Shown piece by piece: positions 2,694 to 64,000 of a stretch of 64,000 bases of DNA; position 1 is the stretch's first letter; each line of letters begins with the position of its first letter. The notes under the pieces were generated by a model. That model ran no database searches. It was given only the letters and a program-made list of their open reading frames with translations, and was not told where the DNA came from. A program made the position numbers and the translations under genes. The DNA comes from Moniliella sp. 'wahieum' (lineage: Eukaryota). The DNA lies in assembly GCA_003971905.1 (NCBI GenBank), contig RSEE01000015.1, forward strand, positions 868,001 through 932,000, given 5' to 3'.

Positions 2694-4688
2694 TCATGAT
2701 CCGGAGGTCATGCCGTACATCCTCATGACACTGCAATGAGTGGGCAAGGGTATCATCAAAACCAGATCCAGCTCACGAAACGAATCCAACCCGTAGGTTT
2801 CGGCTCTAGCGGCTCCGGGTTCTGGCGGAACTGGGTAATCCACGGGTTGGATGGGGACTTCGCTGAGTGGGATCCACAGGGGGTGTTCCAGTGACAAACT
2901 TGTACCCCAACAAGACAAGCACATTGACGATTGGGCAGCAATAGGCTTGAGACTGAGATGAATGTCGGGCTCCTGGTTGCCTGTCACAAAGAACTCAAAA
3001 CCCCTGTCAAGAGACAGAAAGAGGATCCCAGCAGTCCAATCCAGGCCAGATACGGCTGGAACCAGCTTTGCCATGGCAGAGAGGAACGGGGAATCCCTTG
3101 GGCACGCATGGCGTAATACACACGCAGAAAAATGATGCATGTGACCACCCACTGGTACAAGGCAAGCGACGAGACGACACTCTGCAAGTACCCAAACACT
3201 TGCGTTGCACTTGAGCTCACCACCGTGTACCCCAAGGGGAAGCCCGCAGTGACAACCAGTACCGCCACCCAAGGCACACCCCACCGGTGGGTCTTGAGAA
3301 ACGCCTTGGGAGCGAATCCCATGTTGGCCAGGGCCATTGCGGAGCGGGATGCAGCAAGCGTACCTGCCGCACCGGAGCTATACGCAGATGTGATACAAAC
3401 TGCGTTGAGAATTGAGGGCAACACTTTGACACCTGCGTTGGAGGCAGCAATGACATAGGGGGATGCCGAGGCTGTACCGGACGAGTTGATAAGACGAGAA
3501 TCCGTGTAAGGGACCACCAAGCCGACACAGAAAACAAGCAAAATGTAAATCCCTCCTACCGGATAAATACGCGCTTGGCGGCACGAGGTAATGCCTGGCG
3601 TGGGTTGCGCGTTTCAGATGCCGCAGCGCAGATGGTTTCAATCCCTTGGTAACTGTACGCAGCGTTGGTGAGCGTGTACCAAAAGCCGAACCAGCGACCT
3701 CTGGCGCCCTTGAGCAAGTACTCAGCCATCGGGCCCGGATTGCGCCAGTACTGGAAACCGGTCATGTGGCCATGGGGACCGGCTCCAAGGTCCAAACAAA
3801 TGCAGAATATGACAAGACCAATAGCAGTCGTGAGTTTGACGATGGAGAAGGCGTACTCCGTCTCGCTGTAAAGACGCGTGAAGGTCAAATTGGTTGCAAG
3901 GAGAACGACGCCAAAGATGGTAATAAATACGGCCGGAGAGATGCTATCGTTCCAGTATTGGACCAACGCTGCTGCCGCAGTAAACTCTGCCGGAAGGCTG
4001 ACAAAGTTACCGTACAGCATGGCCCAACCACTAGCAAATGCCAGTCCCTTGGATACAAACATACCGCTGTGACGAACATAGAACCCGCTCACTGGTGCCA
4101 ACGTGGAAAGCTGGACAGGTTCAGGCTTTGCATCGCAGAATACAGATGGGAGAGGCTAACGTACCTCGGCTTGACAGAAGAGCATCGAACAGGCAAAGAC
4201 TCCCACAATCAAGTATCCTAGCAAAAGTGAAAGAGGTCCAGCAGTTGCCAAGGCCCTTCCCACACCAAGGAAAACACCCGTCCCGACAGAACCTGTCCCG
4301 GTTGTGGTTAATTTGATGAATGCCTGACGTCTACACTATGCCAAATAGAGAGGAAAGAGGACGTACCAGCCAAGGATATCATAGCAAGTTGGCGGGAGGT
4401 GAACGCTTCTCGAACATTATCTTGGTCAAAGAGCGTCTTGGCCAGCTCGGGATCCACGCCAGACAAATCGCCATAGCTCCGAACCTTGCCTGCGAATTGG
4501 TCCAACTTGTTCACTTTGACCTCTACCTTCTCGTCGAATAAGACTTTGTCATCCAAGTCGGCCTGTTCATCCGTCGCGGCTGCTGCGAGAGCGGCATGAG
4601 AGTCGTAGAGTGTGGTGGGGACATATCCGCCGTCGGGGAGCTGGGACTTGTCTGACGGACTCGCAGAGTGGTGGATGGACTCCGACAT
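2694..4688 (-). CDS. Amino-acid permease (APC superfamily, fungal YAT family); multi-exon, frameshifted
   Basis: N-terminus MSESIHH...RQLAMISLAG, then an intron (GTACGT at 4366) and GSVGTGVFLG...AGPLSLLLGY. Also 'GFQYWRNPGP', 'NAAYSYQGIE..AASETRNP..ALPRA.KRVFIR' and 'SASPYVIAASNAG'. Multiple hydrophobic TM segments. 3' end approximate. Confidence 0.92.
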
Positions 4689-12601: not shown

Positions 12602-15470
12602 TCAAGCTGCGAGGGGAAAAAAGATGTACAATAAGGCTGATTTAGATTCACGGTTCGACAGGCGAGGTGGGCTGGCTGGGGATGGGGTTGGTGGCTCCGA
12701 ATCGGGGAAGGGCTTGGCCACATTCATAAAGCCTGCCACCCTAACCAGATCCACCGACGGACCATCGGATTCGACCGCCACAATTAGATCCTCGAGAATG
12801 TCCTCGATTCGCGCTTCGTCCACGTTGCAGCACAGGGCCACCGCACGACGACATTGCGCTGCATGCGCCGCGGCCTGGGTCGAGATGGCTTGGGCGCGTG
12901 TGGTCCAGCTGGAGGCTTGTTGCTCCAGCGCCGAAGCGAGCCAGCGCAATCGTACCAGCTCCCCCTCTCCCTCGCCTTCCATAGAGGTGGGAGAGGTAGG
13001 GGCGGAGAAACAGGTCCCAAGTTTGATCTGCTTTCGTTCGTTCTGCGTCGAGCACATTCAACTCTTCCTGGTCTTCAGGAGCAAGAGGAGGATCCGTGTC
13101 AAAGAGGCAAGGGAAGCCACAACCCGGTCCACATGAGCCACAGTATGCTTGGCTTGGTCAATCTCCCCGTCGGCTTGCTGGCTTCGGCAAGTTTTCGCCG
13201 TTGGGCAGCAAGATCGCGAGTCGAGGCCTGCAGCTGCAGCGCTGCCTGGGCATCTGCTAACGTCTTGTGTTTGTTGTTCATCTCCTCGGCATGGAGTGCC
13301 TTGAGTTCCTCCAACATCGCATGGATGTCTGATTCAGACCGTAGTTAGCTTCCATCGGGACAAGGAGAAACGGAGGACATACCTTTCATCACATCTTGGC
13401 TCTTCACCAGGGGCATGGGAGGAAGAGCGCCTGCACTTTCCGAGTTGACAACTTCGTTGGCACCATCTGAGCCAGCTCCCACCCCCCAGTCGGATGGACG
13501 AATACCAAGGTGGTTGGGAACATCCTTGCGAGCCCCACACTCAAGCAACATCCGAATCATACTTGCGTTCCCAATCCGAGAAACAATTCCCAATGCCGTT
13601 TCACCATCGTCGTCTTGGGCGTCCAGCAGTTCCTGGGCTTTGGCCGGGGGAATGATGGGTGGGGATTTGGGGTCCGTGGCCGTCGTACCAGGGCGTTGGG
13701 GAAACAGGACGTCAAGTACCGAGGCGAGATAGTATCGGGCCGAAGAGGCCCGCCCACGCAAGGCAGCCACCATGGCAATGTGATGAAGGATGGAGCGACG
13801 TTTGTAGTCGCGTGTGGCAATGGAGGCCCCCAGCAAGTTCAAATCTCGGGAAAGACGTTCGCCTCAAACCCGTTCGTTACCAGCACAGCACGGTGCAGCG
13901 CTGTCTCTCCAGCAAAATTGCCTGCTTGTACGTTCGCCCCCCCCTGACTGGAGGGCAAAGCGACCAGCATCTTGACCAATCCCACTTGGCCCAGTGCAGC
14001 CGCCCAATGGAGGGGGCATGACCGTGGTCGTCAATCATAATGTTGGCGCTCACTGCAGGCACTGACACAGAGGGCCCCGAAGCCTGAGCCAGAGCCGCCG
14101 ACATGCGAGCCAAGAGGGCCTGGAATTGAGTGGTAGGCGTACCCAATTGGCTGTTTGAGTCGGTTTCGCCATTCGTGGCGAGGAAGACGTTGGTCAAGAC
14201 ATCCTTCAGTGCCCGCTCCTGCGCCTCATCTGCGCCCGTTGAGATGAACGCCTGGGGACGATCGGCAAAGCGGGCGGTGGGGTCATGCGCCAAAGCTTCG
14301 GGTGGGCCGATGATCACCCGTGCGCTCTTTCCCATGCGTAGCGCATCTGCCCCCTTGCTGTCCTCTGGTGTCAAGGCGGCAGCACGAAGCAAGCCCCCAT
14401 CAGGCCCAAGCGTGTTGAGATCCCGCACGGGTTCGAGTCCCGCCAAGACATTTGAATGTTCACCCTCTCCGCTGCCCGGACGAGGGCCCTAGGGGACCAG
14501 ATGATAGTCCTGAACCCGGAGGTGCAAATTTTTGTCGCTTGTTTGCCGGTTCGTCCGAAGGGGGCAAAGGGTGAGGAAGCGTGGAATCTGGCTCGGTCCG
14601 GTGGAAACGGAACTGGCATCGGGCGGCGGAGCAAAGGACGGGGGAGGCGCTGGGTAGCCCGCCTGTTGGTGAGGGAGACTGAAAAAGCTCTGGGGCACCG
14701 CCGCAGCTGCCGCTGCGGCGGCGGCCATGACGGCCGTTGCCGATCCATTGTTAGGGGAGGACGAGGCGGTTTGGGAGGGAGGCGGTTGACACTCTGCTGC
14801 GACGGCGCATTCGGATTGGGTCGCTTACCCTTGGGCGCGACAGTGAGGGCGCTCTCACCGGCAGGGTCAAACTCCAAGAGCATTTTGAGAAGGTGGGCTA
14901 CATTGAACTGGGTTGCCAACTGTATCCCGCGATGGAGCGGGATCCATGTCCCTTGGTACTTGCCATAACCGCCCTGCACCTTCTCATGCTCGCCGGTGAG
15001 AATGACCTTGTCCAACACTTTCGTCCGCCGCGTCTTCTCCACCCCAGCGACCTTGAGGATCTGAGTTGCGTTCAGGTATCCATCGGCTCTCCGCCGCATG
15101 CACGCAATGCCGCGGACCGTGCTCGTATACCGGCACACCCGAGTAAGTTGCAAGATAGATGCGAGCAGGAGGGGCGCGTCAGCGGGGCACCTGCGGGGGC
15201 ACCGGGACGAGCACCTGCGGAAACGCCCGCCGTACCACTGCCAGCACCAGGTGGGGGCATGGAGGTGGCGGGAGCGGGATTGGGCAATGGAGGACTACCG
15301 GCATTGCCGGCGTGGGGCTGCGATAAGGGCAGGTGGGGAGCGAGAGGGGCGGCTGCGGCTGGGGCAGAAGTAGAAGTGGAAGCAGGCGTAGAGGCCGAAG
15401 GAGCAGCGCCAGCAACAGCACCAGCAGATGCGGGCGATACCGAGGCGCCGGGGAAGGACGGATGCGGCAT
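12602..15470 (-). CDS. MBP1: APSES (KilA-N) and ankyrin-repeat cell-cycle transcription factor, Mbp1/Swi4/Res1 family
   Basis: APSES domain 'MRRRADGYLNATQILKVAGVEKTRRTKVLD..EHEKVQGGYGKYQGTWIP'. Ankyrin repeats 'DDHGH..LHWA', 'GETAL' and 'LLDAQDDDGETALGIVSRIGN'. C-terminal 'CRRAVALCCNV..IEDILEDLIVAVESDG'. Start inferred at ATG 15470. Confidence 0.9.
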
Positions 15471-21426: not shown

Positions 21427-24400
21427 ATGACGTCCGAGCGCTCCGCCTCCTTCGCCCAGACGGCCGCCATCTTCGCGGGTGTTTGGCTGCCGGCGTTGGC
21501 TCGGTCATCCTGGCTCAGAAGGTCGCTGCCAAGCATGAGCCCGTTCCCTCCCTCGGGCCAGTCGAGTTTGTCGAGCGCGCTACCCCCGCTCTCTGGATCC
21601 CCCGCGCCATCCCGGTGTTGCCAAAACAGAGGATGCTGTCCCCAAGCTCACTACCCCGGCCCCCAGTGCCCAGTCGCTTGGATCAACCGACCTTGACAAC
21701 GCTACGTCGTGGGCGCCACGGGCGTAGAGCCGCACCACCCCCCGAGGCACCCGCGAAGCACACGGCAACCCACGCCTCCCTCCTCGCCGAACAAGCCGAT
21801 GCCGCGGCGGAGCCTTCGCACCATGCTCCTCTCTGGCATCGCGGCCCCTTAATGGCAGCACGGGAGTTGGCCTAATCGAACGCCAATCCTACTACGGTTC
21901 TGACGCTGTGTTTGTGTACGACTCGGATGCTACCTCCTTTGGTCGTTGGGTCGAGGCCGCTCATGGAAGGGTATTGAATCTTCCAAGACCACCAAGGTTT
22001 ACTCCCTCCAGACCCGTGGGGGCGGCTACCGCGGTCTTGGGTTACCTCTCGGGTGCCTCTACTTCGGCCCTTTAACCAGCGATGGTCTCACCGCATCCAT
22101 CTTGACCAACGCTCAGGGCTTGGTCGCTATGGCCCCTGCTCTGGCCTTTGCCCAGTCTTCCGGGCGGATTGTGGCTCAGGTGTCGAGCGCTGGACACGCG
22201 GTGTCAGGCACGGGCGAAGGAGCTCTGCAACTTATCGACAATGCCCCTTCTACGTTGCTGGCTGCCTCCCTATTGGCTGAAGGGGACGGTCAGTGGACTG
22301 TGATTTACACTCGGACCAGAATGAAGCGGCAGTGTGGCGGCAGCTGCGTACAAAGCCACAAAGGGCAGCCTGGCTCATATCTTCGACGGCGTCTTTACTG
22401 GCCGTGAGATCGACCCGGCCTTGACACCCTCGACCAAGGTGGAGAGCGCCCAGGGTGAGACTGTCCTCGACGTGCTTGCGGCCGCCAAGTTTGACGCTTT
22501 TCCTACGTCGGCCCGGCAAACCCGGAGGTGGTCCTCGTTGTCCCCAACACCTCCGTCGCTGCCGCGGCCAAATTGGCCTACTCCCGTCTCAATGCCGAGT
22601 CCAAGGCCAAGAGCTGTTTTGGCTGTGCGGATCGTGCGCCCCTGGGATGAGGCTGCCCTCCTAGCTGCCGTGCCCGCCAGTGCGAAGCGTGTTGCCGTTT
22701 TGGAAATCGACCAGGGCGTGATTGCCGCGGACGTGGAAGCCGCTTTCTTTGACACCACGACCGACGTTTCCATCCTTGCCGCCCCTGCGGAGCTGGAGTG
22801 GCTCAGATCTCCACCGCGCTGGAGCTGCTCATTGCAGGTCCCACGTCGTGGTCCAGGTGGTGGCGCGCGCCGATCAGGCCGTCGGCCTCCGCTTCGGCGA
22901 CAGGAAAACTGCTTACCGTCCTGGACACCGAATCGAGCGCTACGACCTATGCTGGTCAGATCATTGCCCGCATCTTTGCCGATGCAGCTGCCTCGGGGTT
23001 GGTGCGGCCAAGGCACTCTCGTGCCGGACGCTCCAACGCTTTGACAACTTCCACGGCCCCCAGGCGGCAGGTATCGTACGTTCGGACCTTGTCTTTGGCC
23101 CGCGCAGCCTGTCCGTTGCTGCTGCGGCGCAGGATGGTCAAGCCCAGACAGTGGTCTTGGCCCAGGCTGGATCAATTGCCTCGACGCTGAACACCCTTTC
23201 CTCCGCCGCCTTGGGGGGTACGGTGGTGCTCGACACATCGGGCTGGGACGCTCCTGCTGCAGAGGTTCTTTCGGAGCGGTTGGCACCGATCGTACAGCGC
23301 TCCATCGCCGCCTTGTCCCTCAAGCTGGTCGCCATCGATACTGCATCGGTTTTTCTCAGCTCGAGGCGTCTCTGACAACGGGCAATACCAAGGCAAAACA
23401 GGTCTCGCTTGACGCTGAAGTGGCCTCGGCGGTCCTCGCTATTGCGCGTGCAGGTGCACCTCAAGGCCACGCCTGCCACACTGGTTGCTCTGGCCCAAGC
23501 TGCTCTTGCCGAAGTTTCCGGGATCAAGGTGGAGGAGCTCGTTTTTTTTGTCGGCAAAGCTCTTGCCCCCGTGTCGTACGACTCGGCCGTTTTCGCCGCT
23601 GCCAAGGAGGAAGAGGGCAAGTCGGTACCCGTGTTGCCTGACTGGGAGTACACTGGCTTTGCCCGTTTGGATGATCGTGCTGGGGCGGTGGCTGAGCCTG
23701 TGGCCCGTACTGCTTCTTGGGCCTCGGCCGCATGGCAAAAGCTGTACCCTGAGGCGTATGATCTCCAAGCCGATTCTCTTCGTGCCGACCTGGCCCCCGA
23801 AAAGCTTTGGGAGGTGGAAGTGACAGAGAACCGTCGTCTGACCCACTGGACTATGATCGCAATGTTCCACTTGGAGATGTCGACCAAGGGCACGGATCTT
23901 ACTACGAGGTCGGAGAAGCTCTCGGTGTGCACGGCTGGAACGACGAAGAAGAAGTGCGCGAGTTTATTCGTTGGACGGGCTTCCAGCCTGACGAGGTCAT
24001 CAGCGTGCCGACCGAGGGCGGCAAGGCAGAGTCGCTTACTGTGTTCCAGCTGCTGCTTCAACGCAAAGATATCTTTGGTCGCCCCGGCAAGAACTTTTAT
24101 GCCGTTTTGGCCGACAAGGCGGCAAACGCCAACGAGGCCAAGTGGCTCCGCTTTGTCGCTTCCGCCGAGGGCAACAGCACGTTAAGAAGTACGCCGAGGT
24201 GGAGACAGTGACGTATGCTGAGGTGTTGCGGATGTTCCCCTCGGTGCTGGCCAACTTTACCGTCACCGATCTGCTTACCCACATTGAGGACATTCAGCCG
24301 CGCCACTACTCCATTGCGTCGGCCCAGGCTGCGGTGGGAGAGTCGGTGCACCTGCTGATTGTTACTGTGGATTGGAAGACGCCGATGGGGCGCCGCGTTA

Positions 24401-25076
24401 CGGCCAGTGCACACGCTACCTTTCCAAGCTCCGTCCGGGCGACAAGGTGACGGTATCGGTGCGCCCCTCAGTGATGAAACTGCCTCCGCTGTCCGAACAG
24501 CCGATCATCATGGCCGGCTTGGGCATGGCGCAGCGCCTTTCCGTGCCTTCCTCCAAGCTCGTGCGGTGCAGAAGGCCCAGGGTCTTCCTATTGGTCCGCT
24601 GGTGTACTACTTTGGTTCGCGCTACCGCAGCAAAGAGTACCTGTATGGCGAGGAGCTGGAGGCTTCCAAAGCCGACGGCATTCTCACCCGCCTGGGGCTG
24701 GCCTTCTCGCGCGACCAGAAGCATAAGATCTACATCCAGACAAGATTTCCCATGATGCCGAGATTATGTCGTCTTACCTTGCCCCGAGATTGCTGCTGCG
24801 GGCGGGACGATCAAGGTGGCCACTCTGGCCGACGCCTTGGTCAAAGCCGAGGAGAAGGACAAGGGGTACTTCTACCTCTGTGGACCGTACGTCTCTCTCT
24901 CACCACTTCACTGCATGAGCTCCCTACTAACCTCTCTTCTGTTTTAGGACCTGGCCCGTGCCCGACATTACTGAGGCGGTCATTGGCAGTCACACACAAA
25001 GGGCGTCCCGTGCCCAGGCCGAAGAGCATCTTGAGAAGCTCAAGAAGATGAGCGCTGGGTTCTCGAGGTCTACTAA
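21427..25076 (+). CDS. MET10: Sulfite reductase (NADPH) flavoprotein alpha subunit; many apparent indel errors
   Basis: 'VTENRRLTP.DYDRNVFH.E', 'YEVGEALGVHGWND', 'DIFGRP.K.FY', 'IQPRHYSIASAQ..VG.SVHLLIVTVDW', 'RYGQCTRYL', 'PIIMAGLG', 'YFGSRYRSKEYLYGEELE' and 'AFSRDQ'. 'FYLCGP' precedes an intron at 24886-24948. C-terminus 'RWVLEVY*' ends at 25076. Confidence 0.93.
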
Positions 25077-26616: not shown

Positions 26617-27222
26617 TGAAGCTTGAAGGCCACACTTCAAGCTTCAAGCTCTTCAAGCTCATTTCTGAAGCGGTGCCTGTGGGGGGCCACAGCTGGGTTG
26701 CGCTTGGTGTGCCCATTAAAATACGTCGAGCCATCGTCTGCCCTCGACCATCGCCCTTTGTGTGAAGCCGCAGTGGCGTAGTGGCCACAGTAGCGCGGTT
26801 GATTCCTTGCAATACCCCTTCCTGGAGAGCAGAATTATTCTCCAGCCTCTGTAGCTCATATGCAATGCAATGCACCCTCAACACTGCCTGCTCTCTGATA
26901 TTTAACACTCTGTCCGTGGCAACACAGGGCAATCGGTGTGCACCCGACTTCTCAGGAACGCTGGACACCAACACATCCTCTGTCTGTTGCGATCCTCTGC
27001 CATTCACTTGCAGGATCAAGTGATCCACACTTGCCCTCTTCCCTGGCAACTGTGCTGTCTCATGCATCATGCATACTCTCTTGCCCCACCTGCATCATGC
27101 ATCACACGTCCAAATAACCACTCCGACGAAGTCACCACAAGTTGGCAGACCTTGAAGACAGGGACCAAGAAACGCGCGGATAGCCAGCCTGTAACATGTA
27201 TAACCTCAGGCCTCAGGCCTCA
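26617..27222. repeat. AAGCTT, ATGCAT and AGGCCT palindrome arrays upstream of the Per1-like gene
   Basis: tgaagcttgaag and ttcaagcttcaagct (26617-26660); catgcatcatgcat (about 27060-27104); AGGCCT 27208 and 27215. Confidence 0.8.
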
Positions 27223-27483
27223 CGCGCGGTAGCCACTATAGAGCAATCGAATCGCTGCGAGCCTCTCGTCTGTCGATTGTCGATCATCACTGTTTATGAA
27301 GCGATGCCACTATACGCTTATGATCGCCATAGGAATGGTCACATATTTCTTTTCCCTCACAGACGGTACCTGCCCCACCCCCACCTCCGCACCCCATCAA
27401 GAATTATTATCCCCTCTCCACCACTCCTCAACATTGCTCCCTTTGCCTCGGCCCCCTTTCTCTCTCGCCTCACACTGGTCGAC

Positions 27484-29430
27484 ATGCGCCCTCCTCGCTC
27501 GGCGCGCCGAACACGCAACGCATTCCTGCGCAACTGGTTGCTCCTTGTCGCTCTCCTTGTGGTGGCTAGGATGGGTGTGGTTGTGCGTGCCTCAGAAGGC
27601 GACCAGGCCCCCGAGTTCAAGCAGTGCGTGAGCTCCTGCTTGGCTGATGTCTGTGGCCCGGACGGCGTGGATGACGGGCAGACAGGCCGGGAAACGAGGC
27701 ACGATATCCATCTTGCGTGGCCTATACGCTGGACCAAGTGGACATGTCAAGACGACTGCGCCTACCACTGTGCCCATCAGCTCGCGAACGAGGCTGAATC
27801 TCGCGTCGCGTTACTCAAGAAGCAAGTGCGCGAGGAAGTCGCCCGCCGGTCTCGTAGAAAGAGCGACTCTCCCGAAGAACAAAGCGAGAAGGATCTTCTG
27901 GCCGTACGTATGGCTGCTTTGGCGCCGGTGCAGAAAAAGAGGGTTAAATACTACGGCAACTGGGTCCTGATTCGGGCCTATGGCACCCAAAACCCTCTCG
28001 GGTGCTATTCAGCATCTGCAACTTTTTCATGCAATTCTATCTCTTCGGCAACTTGCGAGAACAGATCCCGGATGCATTCCCGATCAAGCTCAACTTTCTC
28101 ACGCACACTCTATTGGCGGCGAATGCATACCTCTGGTCTGCTTTCCTTCATACGCGCAACTTACCTTGGACCCAAAGAGCGCACAACCTCAGTCAAGCTG
28201 CCGTCCTATTCCATGCAACCTTCCTCGTCATTTCCCGTTACATGCGCATCTCTCTTTTCCGTTCGGCTGCTACTATGTCGCCTCCGCTGTCTCCCTCATC
28301 CATATCACCAGCGTCTCGCATTTACAATTGCGCAAAGAAGTACGGTATCGTGGAAGTTACTTGCCTCCTGGCTCTAGGGTATACTGCCTGGCTTTGCCTT
28401 GGTCCGTTGCCCCTCCAACAGTATAACACGCTCATTACGTTTCTGATTACTCTTCTCCAACTAGTCATCCTCGGCCTCTACGCTATCAGGCCCTCTTTCT
28501 TCCCCGGGGATGGAAGCCTTATTCAACGTGGGACGAAGAAGATACGAGGAAGTGTACTACTATGTTTGAGTCCCGAGTGACAGTGGAGGAGGACCAAGAA
28601 GAGGAGAGGGAAGCGCAGATTGACGGATTGAAGGTGGCAAACGAACCTTTACTTTGCACCACCGTCCCTCGGTCTCGACACCGTTCTCGCGTCTTTCCAA
28701 GCCCACCCTGCACAAATCCAACCTCTCGCTCCAGACGGTCCAGAATTCCAAAACAGATGGTACTCCACCACGGCCCAGCTTGCCCTCTTCCCTCCTCCAT
28801 CTTCACCCCTTTCCTCCACTCGGCCCGATTGGACTGTTACTACCCCCTCATTCCCATCTCTGTTCCAACGGAGGCGTCACCTACTTTGCCTTACCGCTGT
28901 GACCCTGATTCTCACTGCAATCCGCCAGTGGGACTTTTGCCCCCTCGTTCGAACACTCGACTGTCAAGCACTCTACCTCGCCGGGTCTATTCCCCTTACC
29001 CTAGCATGGGCCAAGTGGCTTGTTCACGACGCTCGTGCTCTCACCAGCTGCAGCCCGGACAGGAGTATCGCGGGCCACCCAACGACGCCCGACGTGTCGG
29101 TTGAATGCGTTGAGTTCACCAGCCCCATCCCAGAAAAGATCGACGAGGACCTTGCTTGGGTCGCAACCGATTCCTGGCCCACTTTCCCTCAGGACCGCTT
29201 GCAGGCATCCTGGTGGTCCACCTATGCCCCCTGGACGTTCTACGTACTCAATGGGCTCCGTTCAGGTATCATCCGGAGTAAGGTCCTGCTATCCCGTTCG
29301 GTCCACACTGGTTGGAACGCTACGGTCGGTGTTCGCAAGCGCGGCTGGTGCCCACGTTCTACATGTGCTAGACGCCTTCGCCGCCTTTGTCGAGCCCAAC
29401 TCTGATGGTGCGCTTGTGGTAGCCACTGCC
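27484..29430 (+). CDS. PER1: Per1/PGAP3-like (CREST family) membrane protein with degenerate catalytic motifs
   Basis: Signal anchor, then 'ASEGDQAPEFKQCV..C', 'WTCQDDCAYHC', 'KYYGNW..RAYGTQ.P...LFSICN' and 'WSAFLHTRN'. After a low-complexity insert, 'WDFCPLVRTLDCQALYLAGSIP..WAKWLVHDA' aligns to the FDFPP..DAHSLWH region. End approximate. Confidence 0.8.
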
Positions 29431-50110: not shown

Positions 50111-50858
50111 AGACGATGCGAGGAAGGCAGGGTGGGTGGGACATCACGTGACGTGATACTCAATATGCACCGAAGATGCACTTTACCCTGAACAAAGTCA
50201 CTCCACTCTGGGTTGGGGGCCGGTAGGATGAGACACGGCGTGCCGTTTTGCTCCACTCGGCCAATCCCGGGACGCAACAGGAGCAAGAGCAACAGACGGT
50301 GGGTAGCATGTGCGGGAGAGAGAGGGGGCAGGCACAGTGCGCTTGCACCAAAGTATACACACAGTGAGAGCGGGGCATCAAGCTATACGTCAGCACCGAC
50401 AGGAAACGTAGGAAACGTTGCTTGATTGTGAGCGCGCGCGAACCGTTGATCCCGGCGCTGATGATCATCTCGACCGTTATTGCGGCCTAGGGCCCCAAGC
50501 GCCCAGGGCCCAGGAGAGGGGATTGGTATTGAGCGCGCGCATTGAGCGTGGGCTGAGCGCAGCTCCCGCTGAGCGCGAGCGCAGTTTGAGCCGTCTGGAC
50601 TGCCCGTCCTCTTCGCATATTCATCTGCCCAGCCTCATCACCCGGCGGTCCCGAGGGTCCTCCTCTGAGACGCAGGCTCTCCACAGGCACAGCGTGCTTC
50701 AGTTGGACCCACTCGGGTCCCTCATATACAAACCCCACATCCGCCTGCTTCCTTGTTGCCTGAAGTGGGGTCTCTTGAACACACCCGCCACGCTTCCGCC
50801 CCTCTCCTGTTTTCCTTTGCGCTGCCACCACCACTGTTGCTCCTTCACCTGACACTCT

Positions 50859-53621
50859 ATGGAACAACCCTCCCTTAGTGCCTGGTCGCGACCGCCAGCG
50901 AGAAAGCTCCCTTCGGCATACGAGCGCACCCATACCGCCTGCGCCGCGGCAGATCTGCCGCTCCCCGGTCTGCCTCAATGTGTGCTCCTTGCCGGCCCAG
51001 GGGCAGCAACAAGCACCGCACACGTACTACATGCTCTCGGGGGCAGCCCCCTTGCACCCCTGATATCTCCTCAAATGCCCACCATGTATGGTTTTCACCG
51101 CTTGCCGACAACACCATTTTGGTCGGAAGATGCAACTGCTCGTCCTCTGTTGGTTCGTTTGCAGCCATCTGAAGATACGTCCATGGCTCCGCGTCTGTCC
51201 TTACTGGCGTCGACTCGATGGAGCCAGACCAAGTGTGGGCGCGCATCAAGGCGGAGCGCTCGCATCCTCCACAGGAAGGCGACCCTCTAGCTGCCTCACC
51301 TTATGCGCCCCCGACTTGCCTCATCTGCAGCTGGTCGAGCTCCCTGCCCTAATTGTTCCGGACGAGCAGGCCTCTTCTCTCCAGCTACGACGGTCGCGTC
51401 CGGCAACGTTGGAAGCAAGGTGTCTCCTGAAGATCTGGTGGCGCAAGCTCGTCGTTCTTTGGCCTTGTCGTACGCTTCGGAGCCGGATGCAGTTCTTTGC
51501 GTTGTTTTATCCCCATGGGAGCGGGCCGAGACTAGTCCCGCCGTCCAGTTGGCTCTCGAAGTGGACCCAAAGGGGGACAGAACGGTTGGAGTGATCCCCT
51601 TTGCCATGTCGTCTGCAGGGAGATACAACCTTCCGTTCCTGGGGCGCCCCAGTTCCCCCTTTAAGAACGGTACCATCTACCTCCCCATCGCGCAAGCGGG
51701 TGGGTTCGAATCTAGGGCGCTCCCCGGTCTGGCTACGTGGCAACAGCATTCTGTCTCCTTTTCTTCTTCTTGGCTGGGCAGAGGTGCGGCGGGCTGCGTT
51801 GGTGGATGCAGTGGCTCGGACTTTGCTGAACCGCTTTCAATGTCGGGTCCCAGCATTGACAGCGCGATTGAGCGCGTTGGTAGCTCAGACGCAGCACCAA
51901 CTTGCGCGGGATGCCCCCTCCCCCGTCTCTGCCTGTTGACACGTTTCGACGGCCGCGCACGCAGGATGAAGAAGAGAGGACACTGGTTGGATCAGACTGG
52001 GACAACGCTAAGGTGGGGAAAGCGTCCCCACCCCATTCACCTTCTTTATCCATTGCCCCTTCCCTTACTCCTTCCGGGGCAACTGCCTCTGTTGTAGGCC
52101 CCACAAGGGTGAGTGCCTCATCCCCAATCGGATCAGAGGCAGCTCAACTGGTGCTCTCTCTCACAACCCAGTTTGCTTCGGATGTGGTGGCCTGCATTGA
52201 GGGGGAAGGCGGGGCCAGGATCTATCGTACTTTTGTCGACTCTTTCCATCAAGCTCTTCTTGATACCATTCCTTCCCCTCATCTTCAGCAGTGCGACGAG
52301 GGGCTGCCTCCTGGCAACCCCGACCCTGAGTGGGACGAAGCGTCGGGGCTATCCACCCGGACCATTCGTACCGCCTTGCGTAACGCTGCCGGTCCAAGAC
52401 CGGGGCTCTTTGTCCCAGACCAAGCATTCCAATTGCTCGTCAAGCCACAACTGCATCGCCTCCACTTCCCGGCTCAACAATGTGTGGAAAGTGTGTTTGA
52501 GGAATTGGTTCGCATTGCTCACGTCTCGGCTCGACCCGTACGTCATTCCGCTATACTACCCCCGCACTGAACAAAAAAACGTACTAACCCCCGTGTCCCA
52601 GGAGCTTGCTCGCTTTCCTCATCTACGCACCGCGCTAACGGATCGCGTTGACCTAATGCTGACAGAACGACGAGGGCCTACAGCCGAGTACATTAGGAAC
52701 CTCGTCGACCTCCATTCCGCATATATCAAGGTTGACCATCCTGCTTTCGTTCGCGCGAGAGAAGCGATTTTTCATCCTCCTTTGCCCCACCTGTTAAGCC
52801 CGCGTCCAAACCCAACCTTACCCACACCACAAACCGCAGCCCGACCATGACGCCCCCTCGCCCTTCTGTACAGGAGGAAGAAGGCCACCCTCCCCTTTCC
52901 CGTGCCCAAACCGTGCCTACGATCCCCGTGTCCCCTCTGATCGGTGCCTTCCGATGGAGGCGAACGCCCACACCCACTCCGCCTGCCAAGCCGACGCCTA
53001 CCAAGGCACGAACACGGTCCAGCACCCAGAGTCTCTCCTCTCCTCCCATCCCTCCTGTGTCTGGTCATCACCGCGGGGCGACAGTGGCGCCGTGCCGACG
53101 GTGATTCTTCCGCCTCCAGCTGGGTCCGCTCCGCAGCTGCTCCCGCCCCCCCCACCGTCCGAAGGATTTTTCTCTCGCTTCTTGGGGGGCAGCGAGGACC
53201 GGCATCGGCCGTCCTCGGTGCAGGACGAAGCACGCTCGTCCTCCCCTGGCCCTGCTGCACCCCAAGGTTCAATCGAGTCGGAAAGCGTGCCAGCCCAAGC
53301 GGAGAAGGTGCAGCCTAGTCGAAGGAAGAGTTGGTGCGCGCGTTAGTCTTGGCTTACCTAGCCCTGGCACGGGAGGTGGTGGAGGACACGGTGCCCAAGG
53401 CCATCATGCACCTTCTTGTCCACGCGGCCACAGAGGCGATGGAGACGCGGTTGGTGCAGGCGCTGTACTGTGCTTCGCCAGAGCGAGAGGTGCCGCTCCT
53501 CCATCCGGCCTCGTTGGGCCGTTTGCTGGAGGAGGACGAAGCGGCAGTACAGCGCGCATCGAGGCGCGTGCCCGGCTGGAGACCTACCAGCACGCGCTCC
53601 AGCAGATTGCGCGTGAACTAA
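50859..53621 (+). CDS. Dnm1/Drp1-like dynamin-related protein with degenerate GTPase motifs
   Basis: Stalk 'GGARIY..F...IRTALRNAAGPRPGLFVPDQAFQLLVKPQ..CVESVFEEL' and 'ELARFPHL..ERRGPT..AYI.VDHP.F'. GED 'LVRALVLAY..EVVEDTVPKAIMHLLV..RLVQALY'. G-domain scaffold 'LPQ', 'TARPL', 'EVDPKGDRTVGV'. Intron 52538-52601. Confidence 0.88.
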
Positions 53622-54318
53622 TATGGGGGGCAGGAGGCTGATAAGATTACGAGATCTAAGATCTAAGGTCTGAGAGGGCTGTGGCAGCGATCCATACTTT
53701 TTCTCATCGTGGCAGGATGGTCTTGAGGCCTTTTTTGGCAAGGGAGCGATTCGATCACGTACACGAAATCACAGGCATCACAGCGTGTCCCATACGTGCA
53801 TTTGAAATTTGATGCCAATTTGAGGGTGGCCGACGTGGCTGTGTGACATGTGATGGATGATGGATGCGTGATGGCGGCTCCGTGCTGGCACTCGGATGCG
53901 TGGCGGAGCTCCATGGACGGGACCGTTCTGCTGGCCCGCAGTTCCTGATCGTCTGATCTGCGTGGGATGCGCCGGCGGCACGTGAGCGTGGGCGGTGCGG
54001 TGTGCTGGCGCGGTGCGAGTGTTGAATGTTGGACTTACGCGAGTGCGCGGGCGGCGTGTGTGTGTGCTGCGCATCTTCGGACTCAGTACGCAGTCTCAGT
54101 ACTCAGCCCGAGTTGCGCGCTGCGCCGAGCACGAGTACGCGAAGTGCTTGCTCAGGCGGAGCCCCAGGCGTGTCTACTCCGTGGCAGCTATGCGCCCCCC
54201 CTGCCCTTCCAGCCTGCGCACGCTGAGCCCCCGCCGCCCACGCCCGCTGGCGCCCCCTCCGCTTTGGCGCTGCGCTGCCGCTCTCTTCCTTGCCTCCACC
54301 CCCCCTTCTCTGTTCGCC

Positions 54319-62699: not shown

Positions 62700-64000
62700 T
62701 CAAGGGTTGTGATCAAAGCGCGAGCGCATCGCTTCGATGCCCTGACCCAGCGAACCAGGACGAAGGTTGTGAGTGTCGGAAACATGGAACTTGTTGACAA
62801 ACTGCTCGGCGACCTTTTGCATGCCTTGGGATGCCTGCATCATATGGTCGTAGGCCTTGTCCTGCATGGTCTGTTCCGTGACGGGTGGCTCTAGCCCGAC
62901 GCCCCAAGACAGGGCCCGCTCGGTAGGGAGGAGCGTGTTGGGGTTGCTAGCCTGTTGCCAGAGGAACCTGAGACGATTCGGGTCCTCCTTGCGCAACGAC
63001 TCAAACTGGGGGGAGTTGGCAGGGTCATAATTCCCACCAACGATAACCGAATAGTGAAGGGCTTCATGCCGAGCGCTACTATTGCCCTGGAGCATGTCAC
63101 TCCACACAACACCCACCAAATTCGCCCGGGTCAGACGCTCAGTGTCCACCTGGCGCACCGCTTGCGCCTCGATCGCAATCCGACTCTCGTGCTCCGTCTG
63201 CTTGGCCCAGGCGTACCGTTTGTCCTGCAGTGACTTGAGATGGTCAAGGTCAATCCCCAGCAGGCCGGAAGGGTGGTCGCGCAGGTTTGCCACCATCCAA
63301 GCCAATGTGATGTCGGACAAGCCGTGGAGGGAGTAGCCTCCGCCCACGTCGGCGTGACAACCTTGGAACCAGGTTTGCTTTAACACCTGGGTTGGAGGCG
63401 CCGTCTTTTGCTGGTACCACAGCGTCGGCAAAAAGTCCTTGCGATCTTCATGAAGAGAGAGCGCGTGAAAGGCATTCTCTACCCCAACGCCCAGACCCGG
63501 GTCAAAGAACGAGCTCAAGTGCTCGTTGCCCAACGTCTTGAACAGTCCCGGCACCCCGAGCGCGCGACTGTGTCCCACACCCTACCACCTTGATCGGCAC
63601 CACCTCCACCGTAGGAGTAGGCATGACAGGGTGGGCAGGGTTGGCTTCATGTGCGAGTGCATTGAAGGAGACAGAGGCAGGTAGACTCAAGTGCTTGAGG
63701 GACTGGCCAACTTTCTCAACAAAGGTGCCCCGAATCAGATCCGACGCCACACTGGTGACGCCCACTGTGCTGCCATTGGGCCAACGACCAGTGATGTCAT
63801 GCAGCACGTAGCACGCCTTGGCAATCGTCCATGGTTCGTCTGGCCGACGATCCATGTAGGCCTGCCACAGTTCGTGGAGCCGAATGCTCTGCGATTGGTC
63901 AACACGCCTGCAAAATCAATCACCCCCGCAATACAGCGCGCCTAAAGGCACCGCGCGAGAAGCCAAACAGGAAAATCTCGTCTCCCGGCTGATAGTTGTC
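62700..64000 (-). CDS. DUF2235 (Tle1-like) alpha/beta hydrolase; 5' end beyond the window
   Basis: 'NYQPGDEIFLFGFSRGAF' at the window end, 'IKVVG.WDTV', 'ENAFHALSLHEDR..F.PTLW', 'QTWFQGCHADVGGGY' and 'LSDITLAWM'. Confidence 0.9.

Follow-up and report, generated by a model that had tools for sequence, protein, structure and literature searches.

Dynamin-related proteins are usually viewed as obligate GTP-driven machines. Laboratory P-loop mutants of dynamin or Drp1 (e.g., K38A) are dominant-negative: a G domain unable to use GTP, with intact stalk and GED, co-assembles with the wild-type protein. Here, a Dnm1/Drp1-type locus is described that lies at 50859-53641 (+ strand) of a 64,000-nucleotide stretch of the Moniliella sp. 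'wahieum' genome (assembly GCA_003971905.1, contig RSEE01000015.1, positions 868,001 to 932,000 of the forward strand; hereafter the window, in which all positions are counted). The locus is complete and colinear from start to stop, and its product, still encoded or lost only very recently, is best read as a lineage-specific descendant of basidiomycete Dnm1. With slightly better than even confidence, it is taken to be a long-lived Dnm1-derived pseudo-GTPase, the frame breaks of which are assembly errors.

The closest described system is Dnm1/Drp1 itself, the fungal and animal dynamin of mitochondrial and peroxisomal fission. The Moniliella locus shares its domain order (G domain, BSE/stalk, insert B, GED), groups with basidiomycete Dnm1-like proteins and contains Dynamin_M and GED domains scoring above cut-off. 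It differs in having G1, G3 and G4 replaced, two G-domain insertions of about 18-19 residues, at least seven frame breaks and a longer branch. K38A-type mutants offer a mechanistic model for a natural dead copy, but these carry single engineered substitutions, whereas the G domain of the locus has diverged throughout (29/64 conserved columns kept).

According to a preprint (bioRxiv 10.1101/2023.10.03.560745), Mmc1 is a fungal dynamin-superfamily pseudoenzyme without GTP-binding and hydrolysis motifs that keeps a stalk-like assembly region, and a self-assembling scaffold is proposed. The same text describes Mmc1 as widespread in fungi and membrane-anchored, with a mitochondrial targeting sequence, two C-terminal transmembrane segments and no Pfam-detectable domain, its resemblance to bacterial dynamin-like proteins and mitofusin appearing only in HHpred and AlphaFold (bioRxiv 10.1101/2023.10.03.560745). 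As far as that account goes, the Moniliella locus is similar in being a fungal dynamin-superfamily member with lost GTP motifs and a retained assembly region, and unlike Mmc1 in being recognisably Dnm1-type by Pfam and in that 1.84 billion representative sequences yielded no orthologue. Membership of the Mmc1 family was considered and rejected: Dynamin_M and GED are present, and the predicted protein ends in a GED helix, LETYQHALQQIARELIWGAGG, and has no hydrophobic tail. A published survey of dynamins across eukaryotes gives a single Dnm1 copy for representative fungi; as it inspected G domains for catalytic hallmarks (PMC11789081), this filter could have discarded a dead copy. The literature searches made gave no pseudo-GTPase of the Dnm1/Drp1 clade; among fungi, the sole dead dynamin-related protein that they brought up is Mmc1, a member of the bacterial-dynamin-like branch.

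Locus layout and GTP-binding motifs

A profile was built from 17 full-length Dnm1-like hits and run over the three frames of the locus, which yielded a single colinear chain of eight segments:

51135-51185, + strand: profile positions 59-75, frame 0
51295-51351, + strand: profile positions 130-148, frame 1
51426-51596, + strand: profile positions 157-212, frame 0
51799-51906, + strand: profile positions 285-320, frame 1
52136-52528, + strand: profile positions 332-450, frame 2
52596-52769, + strand: profile positions 452-509, frame 0
53328-53474, + strand: profile positions 659-707, frame 0
53555-53608, + strand: profile positions 724-741, frame 2

The gene is thus ordered as start codon, G-domain relic, stalk, one intron, variable insert, GED and stop codon, with the following features:

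50859-50861, + strand: ATG where the ancestral Dnm1 starts, followed by a relic of the N-terminal helix (ARKLPSAY against NKLQDxF in the references)
50970-51035, + strand: G1/P-loop relic, frame 0, LPQCVLLAGPGAATSTAHVLH (50970-51032); Gly-Lys-Ser of GxxxxGKS replaced by Thr-Ser-Thr; assigned by position only
51135-51185, + strand: G2/switch I relic, frame 0, ATARPLLVRLQ; Thr of GIVTRRP kept; profile match at E = 24, colinear only
51295-51369, + strand: G3 region, frame 1, LTLCAPDLPHLQLVELPALIVPDEQ; DLPG replaced by ELPA
51370-51425, + strand: stretch of 56 nucleotides between G3 and the next helix, without homology and without canonical splice signals
51426-51692, + strand: G-domain core and G4 region, frame 0, AVQLALEVDPKGDRTVGVIPFAMSSAG; TKLD replaced by PFA-M; VDPxGxRTxG block intact; profile score 27 bits, E = 3.4e-9
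51781-51924, + strand: first helix after the G domain (BSE/stalk), frame 1, ALVDAVARTLLNRFQCRVPALTARLSALVAQTQHQL
52130-52537, + strand: stalk exon, frame 2, GGARIY and RTALRNAAGPRPGLFVPDQAFQLLVKPQ; 22/22 highly conserved columns kept
52538-52601, + strand: canonical intron of 64 nucleotides, GTACGT...TACTAAC...CAG, joining frame 2 to frame 0 exactly
52602-52847, + strand: second part of the stalk, frame 0, ELARFPHLRTALTDRVDLMLTERRGPTAEYIRNLVDLHSAYIKVDHPAFV
52848-53318, + strand: Pro/Ser/Thr-rich variable insert (insert B) with an FLxxxxGxxG-like motif; frame uncertain, frame 0 having three stops and frame 1 being open throughout
53322-53561, + strand: GED, frame 0, KEELVRALVLAYLALAREVVEDTVPKAIMHLLVH; 11/12 highly conserved columns kept
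53567-53641, + strand: C-terminal GED/BSE helix, frame 2, RIEARARLETYQHALQQIAREL, preceded by a one-base frame break near 53565; stop codon at 53639-53641

The end of the gene had been placed at 53621 in an initial annotation; the homologous reading continues in frame 2 and stops at 53639-53641, where a Dnm1 is expected to end. Domain lengths are preserved along the locus, with nothing large deleted. Compared with reference Dnm1, the G-domain relic has two extra stretches of about 18-19 codons each, at about 51036-51120 (after G1) and at 51370-51425 (after G3). The latter represents either some 19 inserted codons with a single indel among them or a genuine frameshifting insertion. At 51693-51780, where the GVVNRSQ stretch is expected, the sequence is unrecognisable in every frame. 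The intron has perfect donor, branch and acceptor signals, resembling the other clear introns of the window, and its retention speaks against a processed (retrocopied) pseudogene.

The Pfam profile Dynamin_N (PF00350) scores 16.4 bits at the locus, below its cut-off of 27. When compared with a dynamin-type G domain, G1 reads GPGAATST, G3 reads ELPA (from 51337, inside LQLVELPALIVPDEQ, frame 1) and G4 reads PFAM (from 51597, inside RTVGVIPFAMSSAG, frame 0), with solely the Thr of G2 retained. These are the strings that the initial annotation had reported, at the same places; its assumption of a common frame does not hold, as G3 lies in frame 1 and G1, G2 and G4 in frame 0. Its central point, that the GTP-binding motifs are truly replaced, is upheld: none of the frames yields a canonical P-loop, DxxG or TKxD, and making frameshifts cheap in the alignment does not yield one either, with G-domain identity then rising only from 0.34 to 0.36. 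The losses in G1, G3 and G4 are judged to be genuine substitutions because neither the other frames nor the alignment with cheap frameshifts restores a canonical motif. As predicted from the translation, the residues that GTP binding and hydrolysis depend on are gone from the G domain, i.e. the Gly-Lys-Ser of the P-loop, the Asp and Gly of G3 and the Thr-Lys-x-Asp of G4. Within the same domain, read by eye, the VDPxGxRTxG block is fully intact and the motif residues D, G, N, D, K and D are replaced. In the two best-aligned pieces of the G domain (C and D, see below), 13/14 conserved hydrophobic positions are still hydrophobic.

The G1 and G2 assignments of the initial annotation stand less firmly. 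Both strings are present; on their own they are statistically unsupported, as the N-terminal open reading frame (ORF, 50853-51290) has no Pfam hit and, with E values of up to 10 allowed, no dynamin match in the PDB, and the score is only 32-38 when it is aligned with frameshift tolerance to residues 1-135 of a reference Dnm1. As the N-terminal part lacks significant similarity, both assignments depend on position, colinearity and a small number of anchor residues. The sole PDB match of this ORF is a glutathione reductase at chance level (12.4 bits, E = 1.4). The degenerate P-loop LLAGPGAATSTAHVLHALGG faintly resembles the GxGxxA dinucleotide-binding motif of Rossmann folds, which is also regarded as chance.

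Stalk, GED and domain-selective conservation

The stalk and GED were described as clearly Dnm1-like in the initial annotation, and this is confirmed. Pfam Dynamin_M (PF01031) scores 76.2 bits in ORF 51884-52570 and 37.3 bits in ORF 52113-52850 (cut-off 28.5), and Pfam GED (PF02212) scores 44.1 bits (cut-off 21.4). The invariant blocks GGARI, GPRP, FVP..AF..LVKPQ and VPKAIMH, which have roles in Drp1 assembly, are all retained.

To compare domains, a count was made of the columns in which 90% or more of the 17 reference dynamins agree. In the stalk, 22/22 such columns are kept in piece G and 8/10 in piece H, and GED piece J keeps 11/12. In the G domain, the counts are 9/28 for piece A, 7/12 for piece C and 13/24 for piece D. 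Taken together, the stalk and GED keep 41/44 columns versus 29/64 for the G domain (Fisher p = 1.2e-7). mafft --addfragments put pieces A, B and K in wrong places; the test does not include B and K, and the A that it does include is poorly placed in its second half. With the well-aligned pieces C and D alone (20/36), the difference still gives p = 1.2e-4. Piece F (helix 51799-51924) keeps 3/8 columns and was entered in neither total; adding it to the stalk and GED would give 44/52.

Neutral decay would erase conserved positions equally, so the uneven loss is informative: it fits a pseudo-GTPase and not uniform neutral decay. The homologous path has no stop codon in 300 G-domain codons and none in 322 stalk/GED codons, against off-frame expectations of about six and about eight, a test that is biased and gives weak support only, the path having been chosen among open frames. 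Taken together, the column pattern, the hydrophobic core, the open path and the intact intron signals indicate that selection apparently continued to act on the stalk, the GED, the splicing and some of the fold of the G domain for a long time after the loss of GTP binding. The retention of the intron and the assembly domains, which had also been claimed, is well supported by the exact frame join at 52538-52601 and the 41/44 columns.

The same pattern could in principle arise if only the stalk, insert B and GED were translated, e.g. from an internal ATG near 51911 (frame 2), the G-domain relic being neutrally drifting upstream sequence. Column retention indeed falls sharply upstream of about 51800, the frame-2 ORF 51884-52570 has a Met upstream of the stalk exon, and the composition of the N-terminal relic is non-coding-like. 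However, the stalk/BSE helix at 51781-51924 (frame 1) lies mostly upstream of that Met, no stop occurs in the 300 G-domain codons, and the VDPxGxRTxG block and 13 of the 14 hydrophobic positions are kept while motif residues are lost, which is not what neutral drift leaves behind. A truncated gene is thus considered quite improbable.

HMMER searches with the stalk against 1.84 billion representative sequences gave 665 hits at E <= 0.001, 91 of which at <= 1e-10. Eleven hit sequences were examined (eight from the top nine), and these are canonical basidiomycete-type Dnm1 proteins or fragments with 53-57% identity over about 65 residues. Among solved structures, Drp1 and the 6fgz dynamin are the best relatives; the stalk scores 58.6 bits against Drp1, 48 against the 6fgz dynamin and 34.5 against dynamin-1, in a comparison that included no labelled Vps1 stalk. 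The G-domain piece scores alike against Vps1 and Drp1 (24.6 and 22 bits). A Vps1-type ancestor is formally a less likely alternative. In a maximum-likelihood tree (quick search), the stalk/GED falls in a four-row clade with P0015 (from Panus rudis), P0017 and P0008 (SH-aLRT 99), the locus row being long-branched and deviant in composition. P0015 is Drp1-type (678 against 577 bits). The terminal branch of the locus is 3.29, compared with 0.14-0.34 for these three relatives, i.e. about 10-20 times longer, and the stalk is at most 46% identical to its nearest relative P0008.

Frame breaks and competing explanations

At least seven frame changes outside the intron lie on the colinear homologous path in 2.78 kb, and a frameshift-tolerant alignment of the locus to P0015 requires 12 frame changes and two forced long gaps. 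The initial annotation had called the motif changes in-frame and separable from indel noise. Neither statement can be kept in that form, as the motifs are spread over two frames and the gene is interrupted by these breaks. Introns were examined as a cause and rejected: a scan for GTRNGY...CTRAY...YAG finds only 52538-52601 at a frame change. Of the remaining candidates, the one starting at 51235 runs through homologous coding sequence and those starting at 52491 and 52538 overlap the 52538-52601 intron. No splice signals are present at the remaining frame changes, and several of the breaks lie at short homopolymers.

Conserved neighbours were used as a control. The amino-acid permease gene (2759-4553, - strand) has six frame breaks in 1.3 kb when compared with its intact-ORF relatives P0191 and P0192 (79-80% identity), located at 3558, 3004, 2972, 2947, 2883 and 2846, with five within 160 nucleotides and about 79% identity between breaks. 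The FAD_binding_1 domain (23762-24447, + strand) of a reductase-like gene has one break near 24150-24185, where there is no room for an intron, and is split over two frames (profile positions 36-144 and 135-215). The RhoGAP (855 nucleotides) and LIM (390 nucleotides) domains have no breaks in 1.25 kb. In total, the control coding sequence has about seven breaks in 3.1 kb (about 2.3 per kb) versus at least seven in 2.78 kb at the locus (2.5 per kb). One-base deletions at all breaks had been considered as a signature of assembly error; this was dropped, as the permease breaks go in both directions. The Pfam profile of a Per1-like gene (27184-29402, + strand) also extends over three ORFs in different frames (2-96, 54-195 and 206-257), by introns or indels. 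The frame breaks of the dynamin locus are most likely for the greater part indel errors of a draft long-read-type assembly. Given the similar break density in conserved neighbours, they weigh neither for nor against pseudogenisation. Since the permease breaks show clustered assembly indels, polishing has to come before any gene of this genome is called broken.

Such clusters raise the question of whether the locus is an ordinary active DNM1, the G domain of which was garbled by a local group of assembly errors. Clustered indels are certain in this assembly, as the permease gene illustrates, but the identity of the permease between its breaks is maintained, which is not the case for the G domain: cheaper frameshifts hardly improve it and restore no canonical motif, and the other frames at G1 and G4 encode no GKS or TKxD. 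The stalk itself is also far from its relatives, in both identity and terminal branch length. Likewise, the separate locus pieces score 58.6, 28 and about 22 bits against chains of human Drp1, compared with 678 bits for P0015 as a normal basidiomycete Dnm1. An artefact of this kind is therefore hardly credible.

A more serious alternative is that a Dnm1-derived copy was long functional with a degenerate G domain and was recently inactivated, some of the frame breaks being real mutations. This would be in line with the number of frame changes, whether at least seven or 12 with two forced gaps, with the 56-nucleotide non-triplet insertion at 51370-51425, which lacks splice signals, and with the three stops that frame 0 carries across insert B. 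The very long terminal branch, the unrecognisable stretch at 51693-51780 and the noise-level similarity of the N-terminal third point in the same direction. Yet the break density is no higher than in the conserved neighbours, the homologous path is free of in-frame stops and the domain lengths are kept without large deletions. Moreover, with 41/44 stalk/GED columns and the intron signals intact, any decay must be very recent. A pseudogene is on balance unlikely, though it is the most probable of the alternatives. What remains of the probability falls to other explanations.

Several points weigh against the preferred reading of a long-lived pseudo-GTPase with a poorly assembled sequence. No intact ORF can be read at the locus without at least seven frame changes, and the 56-nucleotide non-triplet stretch is not a simple one-base error. 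The N-terminal part of about 110 residues shows no significant dynamin similarity in any test that was run. Its relic is rich in Pro, Ala and Ser with a GC content of 0.66/0.61/0.52 over the three codon positions, which is atypical of the coding sequence in the window; as a coding test, third-position GC and codon-position composition give a weak signal in this genome and are not decisive. An orthologue was not found, with no hits at <= 1e-30 among the 1.84 billion representatives. A word-based homologue search with the stalk exon among longer proteins gave 385 candidates, none at E <= 0.001, and one metagenome scan with the stalk exon gave 143 pattern matches, none of which was confirmed. The 17 references were chosen from hits to the stalk ORF, which favours piece G in identity ratios, not in the column count. 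The bias of the stop-codon test and the quick search behind the tree, with its long-branched and compositionally deviant row, should be counted here as well. The pseudo-GTPase interpretation of the initial annotation is thus partly supported, by motif loss together with constraint on the assembly domains; its in-frame argument has to be given up.

The genes on either side of the dynamin locus encode a GRAB-domain protein (at about 49.1-49.8 kb) and a GH79 protein (at about 54-56 kb). The window is of fungal and, to judge from the neighbouring genes, basidiomycete origin. Among the control genes, the LIM/C1/RhoGAP gene has best hits with 36-41% identity, from Cronartium and Agaricomycetes. The permease is 47-52% identical to basidiomycete proteins and a metagenome protein, and 80-83% identical to read-derived assemblies. 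Neighbouring same-strand ORFs at 13348-15294 (- strand) have hits to KilA-N (APSES-type) and ankyrin repeats, an arrangement like that of Swi4/Mbp1-type cell-cycle transcription factors. The ORF at 62703-63581 (- strand) matches the C-terminal part of Pfam T6SS_Tle1-like_cat with 81.9 bits, the rest of the domain lying outside the ORF; this family also occurs in fungal proteins of unknown function.

A possible role in fission

If the pseudo-GTPase reading is correct, the protein would still form stalk-mediated dimers and filaments, alone or mixed with canonical Dnm1, and would have lost the GTP-dependent G-domain contacts and the power for constriction. With stalk assembly kept and no GTP-dependent contacts, a non-catalytic co-assembly role would follow, the protein either serving as a scaffold or adaptor or restraining, as a brake, the Dnm1 polymers on mitochondria or peroxisomes. 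More specifically, it is tentatively proposed, at somewhat less than even confidence, that the locus encodes a folded, nucleotide-blind Dnm1-derived pseudo-GTPase that keeps every invariant assembly contact of the stalk and GED and enters polymers of canonical Dnm1, where it serves as a built-in brake, cap or scaffold and so regulates both mitochondrial and peroxisomal fission.

No second dynamin copy is present in the window, based on tblastn with 20 full-length dynamin hits as queries. In a bolder variant, the locus would be the only Dnm1 of the organism, which would imply GTPase-independent or Dnm1-independent fission. If the gene is dying instead, it would be an ordinary pseudogene with an unusual history. 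If the pseudo-GTPase reading is right, the locus would give the Drp1/Dnm1 clade itself its first dead member. It would then be a natural counterpart of the laboratory dominant-negative mutants, and could show how a fission polymer is tuned without GTP.

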